A DNA stretch of 64,000 nt from an uncultured bacterium (GCA_963751005.1 CAVVSY010000004.1:761808-825807); one strand, 5' to 3'. Counted from the stretch's first letter, positions 17,387 through 57,773 are shown. Translations and numbers: made by a program. Notes: generated by a model not told the origin, from the letters alone.

Positions 17387-17400
17387 TACAATCGATTGCG
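17387..17400. promoter_or_regulatory. LacI-type operator-like site ACAATCGATTGCG
   Basis: Matches the recurrent GCAAWCGWTTGC motif; divergent promoter between the CoxL-like gene and the 2-hydroxyacid dehydrogenase. Confidence 0.4.
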
Positions 17401-17434
17401 AGCACAGTCGGGGCCTTACCGGGCCGGTTGCTCC

Positions 17435-17446
17435 GCAAACGTTTGC
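17435..17446. promoter_or_regulatory. LacI-type operator, perfect palindrome GCAAACGTTTGC
   Basis: Perfect 12-bp palindrome fitting the LacI-family AANCGNTT core; lies 20 bp upstream of the 17466 start. Confidence 0.45.
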
Positions 17447-17465
17447 TCCCCTAGACTCGACCGAC

Positions 17466-18456
17466 GTGGACGTCAGACGACCGAGGGTGGCGATCCTCGG
17501 AACTCGGTTCGAGGATTTCGATGTCGAGACCGAGATCCTCGGCGATGTCGAGCTGGTCTCGGGGCCGGGGGCGAGCCGAGAGGACATCCTGTCCGTCGCT
17601 CGTGGAGCCGACGTCGTCCTCGCCGGCGCAGCACCACGATTCGACCCCGGAACCCTGGACGAACTGGGGGCCAGAGCCATCGTCCGGCTCGGTGTGGGGG
17701 TGGATGGTGTGGACCTCGATCATGCCCGGTCGCTCGGCATGTGGGTGGTCAACGTCCCGGACTATGGGACCGAGGCCGTGGCCCTCCATGCCGTCACCCT
17801 GATCCTCGGCTCGATACGCCGGCTCACCACTGCCCACGACCGTCTCCGTCGTGGCGTCTGGGGTGTGGCCGAGCTGCGGCCGTTGCGTCAACCGAGCTCG
17901 ATGACGGTTGGCATCGTCGGGTTCGGCCGGATCGGGCAGAGGGTCGGGTCGATGCTCGCCGGGGTCGGCTTCGCCGACTTCCTCGTGTGCGACCCGGTGA
18001 CGACGAAGGACGATCTCGTCGTCAGGACTGGCAGGGTCCCGGGCCGACCTGGTGTCTCTTCCGGAGCTGATGGCACGCTCCGATGTCGTGACGCTCCACT
18101 CACCCCCGCCGGGAGACGGGCACCTGATCGGGACGAGTGAGCTGGCTGCCATGAAGGAGGGGTCGGTCCTCGTCAACACCGCCCGCGGCGCTCTCGTCGA
18201 GACCGAAGCCCTCGTGCGAGCCCTGGCGCAGAACCGTCCCGGATTCGCCGCACTCGACGTGTTCGAGAGCGAGCCGCCCGACGTTGCTCTCTTCGAGCCG
18301 GTGATCGACCGTGTCACCCTCACCCCACACATGTCCTGGTACACCGAGGAGAGCGAGTTGGCGCTGCGACGGCAGGCAGCAGCCGAAGCTCGCCGGATCC
18401 TGGCTCGGGGAGGAGCCGTTGCACCCCGTGGTCGCCCCGGTCGACGGCCCAGGTGA
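17466..18456 (+). CDS. D-isomer-specific 2-hydroxyacid dehydrogenase family protein, frameshift near 18040
   Basis: [16 protein letters not shown] motif; catalytic-domain fragments (VNTARGALV... LTPHMSWYT) lie in a second frame. Confidence 0.65.
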
Positions 18457-18460
18457 CATG

Positions 18461-19233
18461 ACGATGGCGAGTCGATCGATCTACGACCTCACCTCACCCG
18501 ATGTCGCCGAGCTGCTGAGCCGCACCGGGATCGTCGTGATGCCATTCGGGAGCGTCGAGCAACACGGTCCCCACCTTCCGAACGGCACCGACACCATGGC
18601 GGCCGAGCTGGTCGCCGCATCGAGCTGGCGAGACCGGCTCGACGCGATCCTGGTCCCGGCCGGCCAATACGGGGTCACCCCCATCCATGCCGGCCATCCC
18701 GGGACGATCTCGCTGCGATCGCGACGTCTTCGAGGCCTATCTGATCGAACCTCTGCGAGGAGATGGTGGCGATGGGTGCCGGCACCTTCGTCTTCGTCAA
18801 CTGGCACGAGGGCAACATCGCCTCCCTCGACGCGGTCGCCACCGATCTCCAGGACCAAGAAGGACGTCCTGGTGATCACGGCTCATGCCTGTTACACCGC
18901 GCAACGGCTCTACGCCGACGCCGGTGGGGAGCTGACACACGGAGGAGGCATCGAGACTCTCGCCGTCCTGGCTCACGACCCGGAGCTGGTCCGGCTCGAC
19001 CGGGTCGACCGAGCCGACCAGACCCGAGGGCGCCGACGAGCTCGACGCCATGCGGCGCTCCAAGGAGATCTACGGCTACATCACCGACGTCACCGAGATC
19101 GCCGACGATGGGTGGTACGGCAACCCGGCCTGGGCCGACGAGACCCGGGCCGCACGACTTCGCCACCACGGTGGCCGACGAGATCGCGGCGAAGGTCACG
19201 GCGATCCTGGAGATGCGGAAGGGGCGGCGATGA
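18461..19233 (+). pseudogene. creatininase (creatinine amidohydrolase) family protein, multiply frameshifted
   Basis: IVVMPFGSVEQHGPHLPNGTD... FVFVNWHEGN... ITAHACY... HGGGIETLAVLAHDPELV spread over three frames. Confidence 0.55.
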
Positions 19234-19619
19234 CCGTCGTCAGGCCGGGAGACCTGTCGTTCCGTGACTTCCCGGGCGAACCACGGCGGACCCATTCAGA
19301 GACGGCGGGCCAGGGTGAGTCGACGGTCCGTGAGGTCGTCATCGAGCACGTCCCCTCCCGCTCTCCTCACCTCCACCCGCATCAGCGAGGAGATCGTCTA
19401 CGTGGTGGCGGGCCGGGGCCAGGTCTGGCTGGACGGCGTCTTCCACCGGTGGGCCCGGGCACCTGGTACCGGATCCCCTCGGGGACGCCCCATGCCACCC
19501 TGGCCGCGCCCGGGGAGCGGCTCTCCCTGGTGTGCTTCTTCCCCCACGACCATTTCGCCGACAACATCGAGGAGCTCGACATGCACCTCGAGTATCCCGA
19601 GGAGGATGTGGATGACTGA
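19230..19619 (+). pseudogene. cupin domain protein, 2 frameshifts
   Basis: HLHPHQ.. / EEIVYVVAGRGQVWLDGVFH / GTWYRIPSGTPH split over two frames; ATGA start overlap. Confidence 0.45.
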
Positions 19620-20673
19620 GCCGGTCAGACTGGCATCGATCGGACTGGGCCGTTGGGCCCGGGTGCTCGCCCGGGGAGCGCAGCGCGGGTCCGTGATCGA
19701 GCTGACGAGCTGCTTCTCGCGATCGCCGGAGAGCAGGGCCGCCTTCTCAGAGGAGTTCGGCGTGCCCCGGGCCGCCGAGACCCTCGACGAGCTGCTCGGC
19801 GACTCCGGAGATCGAAGGCGTCCTGGTCACCACGCCGAACGACTCCCACAAGACGGTGATCCTGGAGTGCCTCGACGCCGGCAAGGCGGTCTACACCGAC
19901 AAGCCGATCGCGCACACCATGGAAGACGCCGGGGAGATCGCCCGGGCCGCCGCGGTCTCCGGGAGACCGTTCGCAGTGGGGCACAGCGCCCGCCGTCTCG
20001 GCGGCCATCGTGCCATGAAGCAATGGGTGGAGACCGGGAAGATCGGCCTGGTGTCGCTGGCCGAGGCGAACTTCTCCAACGAGAGAGGTCTCGAGCTGAC
20101 CCCCGACACCTGGCGATTCTTCGCCGACAAGAGCCCGGGCGGGGCGATGATCCAACTCGGGGTCCATCACGCCGACAATCTCCAGTACCTGCTGGGGCCG
20201 GTCGCCGCCGTGTCGAGCCACGCCCGCAAGCTGCTACACCAAGGCCGAGGTCCCCGATGCGATCATGTCGATCCTCGAGTTCGAGTCGGGCCCCCTGGGT
20301 TATCTCGGGCACCGGATGGGCCTCACCCGGGGTCTACCAGCTCCGGCTCCAGGGGACCGAGGCCAACCTGTTCTACGACCTCGACTTCAACAACTGGGAC
20401 GAGTCCCATCTCGTCGATTCCAAGAGCACTCTGGTGAGCCAGGCCTACCGCGAGTCGGAGCGGCCACCGGTGGAAATGCCCCACACCGACATGTTCCGAG
20501 AGCAGCTCGACGAATTCGCCCTCGCCATCCGGGGCGAGGCCGAGATCGAGGTCGGTGCCCTGGAGGCGATCCGGGCACTGGCCGTGGTCCACGCCGCCCT
20601 CGAGTCTTCGCTGCGCAACGGGGAGGCGGTCGCCGTGGCGCCGATGGTCGAGAGGGCGGGAGCCCTGGGATGA
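19616..20673 (+). pseudogene. Gfo/Idh/MocA family oxidoreductase, multiply frameshifted
   Basis: VRLASIGLGRWARV... EIEGVLVTTPNDSHKTVILECLDAGKAVYTDKPIA... C-terminal DESHLVDSKSTLVSQAY... lie in different frames. Confidence 0.55.
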
Positions 20674-56467: not shown

Positions 56468-56540
56468 CGGTGTGGGGCAGGACCTTCGATCAGAGACTCA
56501 TGACAGGACGTTACGGTCGGCGACCATACCGCCCCGCCGA

Positions 56541-57467
56541 TCAGGACAATCCGTCCGATACCGGCGTGTCCTCAGGCTCCATCTCCCGCCCCGAGGCACG
56601 GGCTTGCTTGGTGAGCATCGCGGCAAAGTCCTGGTCGCCGTATCCGAGACCGATGCCTTCGACGATGATCGAGTGCACGAGGGCCGCGGTCGGCACCGGT
56701 ATGTCGAGATCGTTGGCCGACTCGAGCCCCAGTTCGAAGTCTTTGCGCAGAAGGTGCCAGGTGAACGTGGGCGTGTAGTCGAGGTTGACGAAAGCCGGGG
56801 TCTTGTACTGGGTGAACATCGATCCCATCACCGAGTCGTTGAGGAAGTCGAGAAAGTCGGCCCGCGAGACCCCGGAGGCCTCGGCCAGCACCGTGATCTC
56901 CGCCATCGACTGCGAGACGATCCCCAACATCAGGTTGTGACAGATCTTCACGAGTCGGGCCTCGTCGCCCTTTCCGACGTAGGTGACCTTGCGGCCGAAG
57001 TTGTCGAGATGTGGCCGGACCTTCTCGTATGCGTCCTCAGGCCCGGAGGCGACCACCGTGAGTCGACCGGCCTTGACCACTTTCGGGTTGCCGCTCACCG
57101 GCGCCGCCAAGATCTGCACGCCGCGGCTCTCGGCTTCGGTCCGGAGTTGCTTGGACGTCGTCGGATCGATCGTGGTCGAGTCGACCAGCACAGATGGTCG
57201 TGTGTCGTCACGGCTGAGGACCCCGTTGGGGCCAGTGGTCACCTCGAGGACGTCCTGAGGACCGGCGACCATGATGAACACGATGTCGAGACCGGCCAGC
57301 TCGGCGGGCGAGTCGACGACCTTGGCGCCATGTTCGGCGAGCATCTCGGCCTTGGACCGGGTCCGGTTGTAGACCCACACCTCGGTGCCGGCGTCGAGGA
57401 GTCGTCTCACCAGAGCGGACCCCATGCGCCCCGCCCCGATCCAACCGACCTGTGCTCCACTTGTCAT
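56541..57467 (-). CDS. NAD(P)-dependent oxidoreductase, HIBADH family
   Basis: QVGWIGAGRMGSALV; HIBADH-like length; intact. Confidence 0.8.
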   Translation of the reverse strand: MTSGAQVGWIGAGRMGSALVRRLLDAGTEVWVYNRTRSKAEMLAEHGAKVVDSPAELAGLDIVFIMVAGPQDVLEVTTGPNGVLSRDDTRPSVLVDSTTIDPTTSKQLRTEAESRGVQILAAPVSGNPKVVKAGRLTVVASGPEDAYEKVRPHLDNFGRKVTYVGKGDEARLVKICHNLMLGIVSQSMAEITVLAEASGVSRADFLDFLNDSVMGSMFTQYKTPAFVNLDYTPTFTWHLLRKDFELGLESANDLDIPVPTAALVHSIIVEGIGLGYGDQDFAAMLTKQARASGREMEPEDTPVSDGLS

Positions 57468-57478
57468 CGTGTCGATCC

Positions 57479-57510
57479 TCCGACCCTGTGTGGCGTCCGA
57501 CCCTGTGTGG
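57479..57510. promoter_or_regulatory. tandem direct repeat TCCGACCCTGTGTGG x2 (17-bp period) immediately upstream of the 57467 start
   Basis: Read directly from the sequence. Confidence 0.3.
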
Positions 57511-57550
57511 TCGTTCCGTGACCAGCCGGTCGGCGGTAGCCGTCTTCCGA

Positions 57551-57580
57551 CTGTGCAATCGTTTGTATTCAACCGTTACG
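57551..57580. promoter_or_regulatory. LacI-type operator GTGCAATCGTTTGTAT with adjacent CAACCGTTACG half-site
   Basis: Matches the recurrent motif. Confidence 0.4.
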
Positions 57581-57755
57581 CGACTGCCCCGTCAACCCGG
57601 AATGGAATCGCGAGGGTGACTGGCTGTGCCGGACCCAGGGTTACCACGGTTTTGTCACCCCTTTTCGCCGGCGCGTTCGAAATCAGAGGCGATAGGCTCG
57701 CCCCGAGGAGGCGGTACTGGTCGGTGCAAAGACCGGACGCATCCCGACCACAACC

Positions 57756-57773
57756 TACAATCGTTTGCTTCCT
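57756..57773. promoter_or_regulatory. LacI-type operator ACAATCGTTTGC 38 bp upstream of the liv-type SBP start
   Basis: Matches the recurrent motif; overlaps the probable core promoter. Confidence 0.4.

Follow-up and report, generated by a model that had tools for sequence, protein, structure and literature searches.

Predicted LacI-Family Operators across the Gene Clusters of a Catabolic Island in an Uncultured Acidimicrobial Bacterium

Introduction

According to a census of the regulons controlled by LacI-family transcription factors, 31% comprise one operon and 38% two (69% together), 93% contain at most 20 genes, 72% are autoregulated, and 96% of the groups with an assigned pathway control carbohydrate use (PMC4052901). 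A regulon of this family is termed global when it covers more than 15 genes in at least seven operons and several pathways (Ravcheev et al. 2014, PMC4052901). Here, we describe a 64,000-nucleotide stretch of DNA from an uncultured soil bacterium of the Acidimicrobiia (GCA_963751005.1, CAVVSY010000004.1:761808-825807), called the window throughout, in which the 12-bp palindrome GCAAWCGWTTGC recurs at the promoters of an island of uptake and catabolic genes. Judging from sequence comparison, these palindromes are very probably operators of the LacI-family repressors encoded within the island, LacI#1, LacI#2, or both.

The predicted regulon forms one island of about 45 kb. With about 43 genes, ten operator-bearing regions, and up to 18 transcription units, the latter delimited by gene spacing only, it exceeds the size set for a global regulon. 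The island's enzyme families are very diverse, yet all of them could serve one complex substrate class. In size it is comparable to the regulons of CcpA (cre sites), Cra/FruR, PckR, and GapR; its sites fit the cre-like consensus TGNAANCGNTTNCA, and the closest solved structures are those of CcpA. However, these global regulators control dispersed genes of central metabolism, whereas here the sites lie in one contiguous stretch with the regulators encoded inside it, and LacI#1 and LacI#2 reach only 185 and 161 bits, respectively, with the NCBIfam CcpA model (cut-off 442). The layout is that of the local repressors RbsR, MalR, GalR, and LacI, with a regulator beside its targets, autoregulation, a palindromic operator over the promoter, and probable release by an inducer. 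Those repressors govern recognisable sugar pathways, whereas peptidase/hydrolase, DHDPS, mu-crystallin, and Liv/Opp-type transporter families prevail in the island. The regulon is conceptually ordinary but unusual in size, global in size and local in layout.

A further point of comparison is the operator of PurR. The 12-mer GCAAACGTTTGC, present in the window as a perfect copy, is the core of the Escherichia coli PurR box (PMC3159470, PMC3739930) and also of the MalR sites of Streptococcus pneumoniae. The island resembles the PurR system, with its PUR box ACGCAAACGTTTGCGT, in regulator family, operator core, central CG, hinge leucine, and multi-operon regulon. In contrast, PurR depends on a co-repressor and controls scattered biosynthetic genes in gamma-proteobacteria, whereas catabolic and uptake genes are packed together here, in the Acidimicrobiia. 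LacI#1 and LacI#2 are not PurR orthologues, as they score 166 and 177 bits with the NCBIfam PurR model against a cut-off of 501.

Results and Discussion

A consensus search of the whole window identified two exact copies of GCAAWCGWTTGC, at 17435 and 48559, against 0.01 expected by chance. Ten copies have at most one mismatch (17388, 17435, 24778, 31480, 38688, 48559, 48673, 54119, 57555, and 57757), against an expectation of 0.17 and a maximum of one in shuffled sequences (n = 100). Fifteen have at most two mismatches (4.1 expected), including those at 29375, 31549, 51444, and 13021. When one mismatch is allowed to the 10-bp core CAAWCGWTTG, a weak site at 39872/3 (ACAACCGTTTGT) is added. A 16-column position weight matrix (PWM), trained on the ten best sites of the window, recovered the same list; it detected nothing further above 14 bits, and no site of at least 14 bits between 1 and 17 kb. 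The candidate operators are listed below, with the PWM score where one is given.

17388–17399: operator ACAATCGATTGC, 21.3 bits; 15 nt upstream of the CoxL-like start (GTG 17373, minus strand)
17435–17446: perfect operator GCAAACGTTTGC; 5 nt from TAGACT (−10-like) and then 8 nt more to the GTG of the 2-hydroxyacid dehydrogenase operon
24778–24789: operator GCAATCGATTTC, 20.9 bits; between an M24 peptidase gene (minus strand, start 24719) and an alpha/beta hydrolase gene (plus strand, start 24824)
29375–29386: weaker operator GCATACGTTTGT, 13.9 bits; between two divergent DHDPS-family genes
31480–31491: operator GCAAACGATTGG; directly 3' of the promoter TTGACA-(17..19)-TAGCGT of the first peptide-type ABC operon
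31549–31560: possible auxiliary operator AAAATCGTTTGC, 19.6 bits; codons 3–7 of the peptide-binding-protein gene (ATG 31541)
38688–38699: operator GCAATCGTTTGT, 21.9 bits; between the LVIVD gene (minus strand, start 38642) and LacI#1 (plus strand)
39872–39883: operator ACAACCGTTTGT, 14.0 bits; between LacI#1 and the creatininase-family/Zn-dependent alcohol dehydrogenase (Zn-ADH)/SnoaL operon (ATG 39912)
48559–48570: perfect operator GCAATCGATTGC, 22.7 bits; 22 nt ahead of ATG 48537 (minus strand), where the second peptide-type ABC operon starts
48673–48684: operator GCAATCGTTTTC, 21.1 bits; about 40–50 nt upstream of the luciferase-like monooxygenase/EamA operon
51444–51455: weak operator GCAAACGTTAGA, 10.5 bits; between a hydrolase gene (minus strand, start 51401) and a quinone oxidoreductase gene (plus strand, ATG 51508)
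54119–54130: operator GCAATCGTTTGT, 22.0 bits; between an EamA gene (minus strand, start 54059) and LacI#2 (plus strand)
57555–57566: operator GCAATCGTTTGT, 22.6 bits; about 90 nt upstream of the HIBDH-like dehydrogenase/MFS operon (minus strand, start 57467)
57757–57768: operator ACAATCGTTTGC, 22.2 bits; 54 nt ahead of the ATG (57811) of the Liv-type ABC operon; shares bases with a −10 hexamer, TACAAT
13021–13032: doubtful outlier CCAATCGGTTGC, 12.8 bits; within an AhpC/TSA-like gene at its 3' end, with a second HIBDH-like gene 86 nt further downstream

The motif is an even palindrome with a central CG and a AANCGNTT core, located at or near the promoters of the adjoining genes, which agrees with the description of LacI-family operators used for comparison (PMC4052901) and bears out its earlier identification as LacI-type. 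That earlier account, made from the window alone (the sequence-only reading), had listed 14 palindromes and placed them in at least 14 intergenic regions. All 14 are real and lie within 5 nt of the positions given, which were set 1–5 nt too low (48557 for 48558/9, 54114 for 54119), but they occupy ten intergenic regions. All are intergenic except the one at 31549, which lies within codons of the binding-protein gene.

Between 17 and 58 kb, every promoter-bearing gap (10/10, that is, all divergent gaps and both co-directional promoter gaps) contains at least one site, against none of 11 other gaps (four within operons and seven convergent junctions). Of the 14 PWM hits scoring 12 bits or more, twelve fall within about 2.1 kb of intergenic DNA, which represents 4% of the annotated 10.4–62.7 kb (binomial P ~1.5e-15). 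The sites are thus almost absent from coding DNA in the window.

The comparison was extended to three sets of loci: 33 loci carrying LacI#1 orthologues (72–86% identity) in metagenome-assembled genomes (MAGs) of soil Acidimicrobiia, with up to 10 kb on each side; 47 distant loci around homologues of 44–52% identity from other Actinomycetota; and, for the LacI#2 half of the island, three loci with independent gene calls, L081, L082, and L083 (98%, 84%, and 81% LacI#2 identity). The loci show clear synteny with the window, although their modules are shuffled. Ahead of the first ABC operon, GCAAACGATTGG or a single variant of it was found in all 23 orthologous loci containing that promoter, whereas the flanks have diverged. 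The second ABC junction, before the ATPase/second binding-protein gene, carries GCAATCGATTGC (GCAATCGTTTGC in three) in 30 of the 30 loci that reach it; 21 orthologous loci could be aligned for this site, which is also intergenic in L081. Next to the LVIVD start, A/GCAAWCGTTTGT plus AGCAT is present in 19 orthologous loci. The counterpart of the site at 39872, ACAACCGTTTGY with flanking TGA...GCA, follows LacI#1 in 24, so that this apparently weak site is among the best conserved. The sites of the 29375 and 48673 types accompany their genes wherever these occur in the orthologous loci, the former as ACATACGTTTGT or ACACACGTTTGC (L001, L010, L017, L018, L020, and L029) and the latter in L001, L008, L016, and L030, as well as in L081. 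Conversely, the site at 31549 reaches 12 bits in only seven orthologous loci, which makes its status uncertain. Anchored alignments of four promoters from 17–21 Acidimicrobiia loci, including that of the weak ACAACCGTTTGY site, all show a conserved 12-mer between diverged flanks.

In the LacI#2 half, L081–L083 have 20 sites scoring 10 bits or more. All are intergenic and stand before genes of the kinds that follow the sites of the window; those of L081 stand 28–102 nt from start codons. The 12-mer at 54119 is identical upstream of the LacI#2 orthologues of the three loci, the sites at 57555 and 57757 are conserved in all of them, and the site at 51444, the weakest member, is identical in L081. 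Among the distant loci, the 400 nt ahead of the gene contain a site for 27 of 28 Liv-type binding-protein genes and for 19 of 26 HIBDH-like genes. The motif reaches a density of 0.12 per kb in the orthologous loci and 0.17 per kb in the distant ones, against about 0.003 per kb by chance. The retention of the motif in orthologous promoters and its near absence from coding DNA, the two checks proposed with the sequence-only reading, both support a real regulon.

These data also bear on whether the palindromes are regulatory at all. Intergenic DNA is slightly poorer in GC (62.8%, against 66.7% for the window) and several sites contain ATCGAT, as might be expected if they had arisen by chance, from mobile repeats, or as a restriction or methylation motif. 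However, simulated DNA of intergenic composition yields 0.04 hits where 12 are observed, the 12-mer is maintained at orthologous positions while its flanks drift, and a motif for methylation or restriction would be expected in coding DNA as well. We rejected a repeated or mobile element as the source of the sites, as the direct-repeat families of the window consist only of paralogous coding fragments and no longer repeat surrounds the sites. We therefore regard a non-regulatory origin as having a negligible probability.

Two additional sequence blocks lie beside operators. Some 39 bp ahead of the main operator of the first ABC operon, a degenerate copy of the motif, GGAATCGGTTGA (31441–31452), overlaps the conserved −35 hexamer, TTGACA. 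This copy scores below 8 bits in the window and 14 bits in L010, and it could be an auxiliary site or mere conservation of the −35 hexamer. At 48582–48596, another conserved block, which reads GCACGATATAG (in the window, GCACCCTATATG), accompanies the 48559-type operator in about 20 relatives. It sits 12–14 nt to the right of the GCAATCGATTGC site in the orthologous loci and could be the −10 region of a divergent promoter or the site of another protein.

The genes around the operators were annotated by searching stop-to-stop pieces against Pfam, because many genes switch frame in mid-course according to codon-bias scoring. From 15 to 64 kb, they are arranged as follows.

Minus strand, left of operators 17388 and 17435: CoxL-like molybdenum hydroxylase
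Plus strand, right of 17388 and 17435: 2-hydroxyacid dehydrogenase, creatininase-family, GFO/IDH/MocA, alpha/beta hydrolase, S15 hydrolase
Minus strand, left of operator 24778: M24 peptidase
Plus strand, right of operator 24778: alpha/beta hydrolase, GRDB-like
Minus strand, left of operator 29375: M24 peptidase, DHDPS
Plus strand, between operators 29375 and 31480: DHDPS-like, ornithine-cyclodeaminase/mu-crystallin
Plus strand, after operators 31480 and 31549: SBP_bac_5 binding protein and two permeases
Minus strand, left of operator 38688: threonine-synthase-like, ACMSD-like amidohydrolase, LVIVD protein
38794–39840, plus strand, between operators 38688 and 39872: LacI#1
Plus strand, right of operator 39872: creatininase-family, Zn-ADH, SnoaL
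Minus strand, left of operators 48559 and 48673: fused DppD/F ATPase, two permeases, small open reading frame (ORF), SBP_bac_5
Plus strand, right of operator 48673: luciferase-like monooxygenase, EamA
Minus strand, left of operator 51444: hydrolase
Plus strand, right of operator 51444: quinone oxidoreductase
Minus strand, left of operator 54119: CMD, EamA
54226–55260, plus strand, right of operator 54119: LacI#2
Minus strand, left of operators 57555 and 57757: MFS, HIBDH-like dehydrogenase
Plus strand, right of operator 57757: Liv-type ABC operon

The genes previously assigned to the sites agree with this map. To that list are added both LacI genes, the M24 peptidase and alpha/beta hydrolase pair at 24778, and the HIBDH-like gene at 57555. 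Between 10.4 and 62.7 kb, no regulators other than LacI#1 and LacI#2 are encoded; the one remaining regulator gene of the window (GntR/FCD, 4210–4875) is far from all sites.

As read from the sequence and its conservation, nearly all sites lie on or directly beside −10-like hexamers or transcription starts. The site at 17388 overlaps a plus-strand TACAAT hexamer, part of a promoter-like TTTATA-18-TACAAT at 17363–17392. The last base of the site at 38688 is the first base of a conserved TAGCAT hexamer. At 39872, the hexamer ends a few nucleotides upstream; it reads TACTCT in the window and TAGTGT in most relatives. Hexamers follow the sites at 24778 (TAGGGT, 5 nt downstream), 51444 (TAAGAT, 4 nt), and 29375 (TAGACT, 5 nt, followed by ATG 29404). 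The site at 48559 lies just upstream of a ribosome-binding site, between it and the likely transcript start. At 17435 and 29375 the start codon stands only 6–8 nt behind the hexamer, which suggests leaderless transcripts; the 2-hydroxyacid dehydrogenase operon thus appears to be leaderless. A strict sigma-70 scan of 17.3–37.3 kb returned a single promoter-like site, the one overlapping operator 17388, against 1.4 expected by chance. As such a scan is too E. coli-centred for a GC-rich actinobacterium, promoters were read by eye and from conservation.

Both regulators combine a LacI-type helix-turn-helix (HTH) with a C-terminal domain resembling periplasmic binding proteins, which substantiates the earlier claim that two LacI-family members are encoded here. 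LacI#1 (348 aa; PF00356, E = 1.2e-14) and LacI#2 (344 aa; PF00356, E = 6.5e-11) both also match PF13377/PF00532. They are 43% identical overall and share the HTH TLRDVAREAGVH(V/T)ST(V/A)SR. LacI#1 aligns over its full length with the CcpA, PurR, and LacI structures. A 99%-identical LacI#1 protein of 348 aa exists in public data, and a 98%-identical LacI#2 protein is encoded on an intact contig. The pattern DVA..AGVH..T.SR.LN and the hinge leucine are conserved across the 83 LacI-centred loci that were fetched; the hinges read ...IARALRT and ...LAQGLRT, with the leucine present in at least 95% of the 83 homologues. The LacI#1 sequence ends opposite residue 334 of E. coli LacI (query 13–348 against chain 2–334) and has neither a C-terminal extension nor the leucine-heptad tetramerisation helix of the LacI-type looping tetramer, so that a dimer is expected. 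Named equivalogs (PurR, CcpA, RbsR, GalR/S, CytR, Cra, UriR, and the GntR-LacI type) were rejected, as all score below their NCBIfam cut-offs; the best matches are RbsR-type models (198 and 208 bits against 382). The motif belongs to this LacI clade, as judged from the clade-wide conservation of the helix, the motif density, the recurrent target families, and the sites found at loci with a single regulator.

The positions of the sites fit steric repression relieved by a ligand, the usual mode in this family. A dimer would bind each 12-bp site, with the hinge-helix leucines probably inserted at the invariant central CG, the role that the leucine plays at the operator CpG in the PurR and LacI structures. 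Once occupied, an operator should block RNA polymerase at the up to 18 units of the ten regions, because nearly all sites overlap or abut a −10-like hexamer, the −35/−10 spacer, or the transcript start. As an operator lies upstream of each regulator gene, both would be among the targets and autoregulated. One or two catabolites would then release the repressor or repressors and switch on transporters and enzymes together. The sequence data show the motif, its excess over chance, its exclusive location near promoters, its retention in orthologous promoters, and its association with this LacI clade, whereas the identity of the binding protein, the sign of regulation, and control by an effector are inferences.

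Because the operator core is identical to that of the PurR box, and LacI-family members of both kinds exist (PMC4052901), a PurR-like repressor dependent on a co-repressor, or an activator, might be envisaged instead. Such a regulator is improbable: catabolic enzymes and uptake systems, the targets here, are as a rule inducible, the sites overlap the −10 region or the transcription start and do not lie upstream of −35, and both proteins fall far under the PurR cut-off given above.

The sequence-only reading had further proposed a single regulon answering to one effector. This was not established, and a single effector does not follow from the data since two paralogues are present, each with an operator upstream, whose recognition helices are near-identical while their ligand-binding domains have diverged. 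We looked for a consistent sequence difference between the sites of LacI#1 and LacI#2 in the window, the orthologous loci, and L081–L083, and found none. The absence of site sub-classes between the two neighbourhoods would agree with one regulator, LacI#1 for example, binding all sites and placing the whole island under one effector, the second LacI being only a target or redundant. Three distant loci, L036, L040, and L045, show that one protein can serve all: each has a single LacI homologue and carries the motif at every module (HIBDH, hydrolase, creatininase/ADH, and Liv transporter). Both paralogues, however, have an intact HTH with the residues conserved in the clade, each has its own set of orthologues, conserved at 75–98% identity, and their ligand-binding domains differ. 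These features argue for two functional DNA-binding proteins, possibly with different effectors, and make control by only one of them rather unlikely.

Alternatively, the paralogues might divide the island through subtle flank or half-site preferences, LacI#1 acting at about 17–50 kb and LacI#2 at about 50–64 kb and beyond. Two positions of their recognition helices (V/T and V/A) are not the same; peptide-ABC, creatininase/ADH, and LVIVD modules accompany the orthologues of LacI#1, and HIBDH, Liv-ABC, CMD, and EamA modules those of LacI#2. Against such a partition, the identical GCAATCGTTTGT occurs in both neighbourhoods (38688 versus 54119 and 57555), and modules are shuffled in relatives, with peptide-type ABC, LVIVD, and FrsA-like hydrolase genes beside LacI#2 in L082 and L083. 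A division of this kind is possible, but we would not favor it.

Several points weigh against the assignment of the palindromes to the island's LacI repressors. The evidence for operators is comparative throughout, and the paralogues are not separable by site sequence. Gene starts and promoter hexamers in the window are our own reading of a sequence riddled with insertions and deletions (indels). PWM scores are partly circular, the matrix having been trained on the window's own sites; the consensus counts and the cross-genome conservation do not depend on it. The site at 31549 lies in coding DNA, and those at 51444 and 13021 are weak. The motif was surveyed in the window and the fetched loci, and it may be common outside the island too. 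Finally, the site upstream of LacI#1 is absent from about one-third of the orthologous loci, so that autoregulation of LacI#1 is not universal.

Upstream of LacI#1, most relatives (L002–L008, L011, L013–L016, L025, and others) have an MFS gene between the 38688-type operator and the regulator gene, which suggests that MFS and LacI#1 form an operon. In the window and L001 the MFS gene has been lost; the corresponding segment (38700–38793) retains a conserved ATGC...AGA remnant with ATG 38718. At the other end of the island, L081 carries GCAATCGTTTGC at its positions 20239–20250, just past window position 64000, between an S15 hydrolase gene (minus strand) and an amine-oxidase gene (plus strand), and the regulon therefore runs past the right end of the window.

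Substrate clues from NCBIfam and PDB are scattered: they point to a threonine-synthase-like protein, an ACMSD-like amidohydrolase, and a pyrroline-2-carboxylate-reductase-like enzyme. The creatininase-like match is below its cut-off, and one DHDPS-like protein has no PDB match. Because M24, S15, and S9-like peptidases accompany DHDPS-family and pyrroline-2-carboxylate-reductase-like enzymes, peptides rich in proline or hydroxyproline are a lead, and only a lead, for the substrate. The same holds for the ring-opening of a cyclic (cyclitol- or lactam-type) substrate by the creatininase-family and Zn-ADH pair. This pair (39912–41744) recurs in the distant loci L036, L040, L042, L044, and L045, and a second creatininase-family gene lies near a GFO/IDH/MocA oxidoreductase gene at 18377–20670. 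We take the pairing to resemble IolN/IolM of the Thermotoga inositol pathway; the IolN model gives only 50 bits against a cut-off of 245.

The regulon is notable for its size, its modular conservation across Actinomycetota, its pair of paralogues, and a gene content in which no sugar pathway is recognisable, and given the census figures it would stand at the edge of the known roles of the LacI family. As a speculative extension, an Actinomycetota-wide LacI clade, defined by DVA..AGVH..T.SR.LN and GCAAWCGWTTGC, may govern shuffled non-carbohydrate modules (Liv-type transporter, HIBDH-like, alpha/beta hydrolases, creatininase-family with Zn-ADH, proline-type peptidases, and DHDPS/mu-crystallin). 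Its duplication in soil Acidimicrobiia would have produced paralogues that read the same operators and sense different ligands, the island opening on both signals or on either. If true, this would be one of the rare LacI regulons devoted to something other than sugars and nucleosides, and a two-input gate that arose naturally on common operators. Literature searches on the island genes and on LacI regulons in Acidimicrobiia returned nothing relevant. The predicted regulon ties together about 43 genes, most of them without an assigned function, and is testable, in a poorly understood uncultured soil lineage represented by Acidimicrobiia MAGs. It is linked to related clusters in cultured Actinomycetota, among them Streptosporangium, Nonomuraea, Nocardioides, and Mycolicibacterium, that are open to experiment. 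Even with gene calls damaged by indels, the operator map points out promoters, operon boundaries, and probable leaderless starts.

This damage is visible throughout the window as changes of frame within genes, for example at 15078–17373, 17466–19151, about 31650, 6600–10400, and 44222–63998. The contig L081, which is 93.8% identical in DNA over 19.8 kb and has intact, independently called genes, confirms the map between 44 and 64 kb. Relative to L081, the window has 55 short indels inside coding regions, 54 of 1 nt (40 insertions and 14 deletions in the window) and one of 2 nt; few adjoin homopolymers. As the relative is intact at about 94% identity, the frameshifts are most likely assembly or sequencing errors, or alignment noise, and not a mark of pseudogenes. 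Because of these single-base indels, exact-protein look-ups of the window genes gave no match. Megablast against plasmids returned no related annotated record. Within the Liv-type binding-protein gene, the ATG of the signal peptide (57811) and the main ORF from 57999 are in different frames, which reveals another indel, and the N-terminal linker contains a 21-nt tandem array of 3.3 copies (57903–57973). In the coding sequence of the same protein, ARAGORN predicted a tRNA-Pro(CGG) at 58254–58338. This call is probably a false positive, since the Rfam search of the window matched no RNA family, and hence no tRNA at these positions.

Left of the island, the region 6600–10440 has low coding scores and no Pfam match as single ORFs; it contains fragments of a NitT/TauT-like ABC transporter (permease-like segments and the Walker motifs of an ATPase) split by frameshifts. 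Further left, a separate cluster on the minus strand (390–6587) encodes two amidohydrolase_2 proteins, an HIBDH-like dehydrogenase, a fumarylacetoacetate-hydrolase-family protein, and a GFO/IDH/MocA protein. It lacks LacI-type sites and includes its own regulator gene, the GntR/FCD gene mentioned above. Its enzyme families resemble those of the island, but its control differs.

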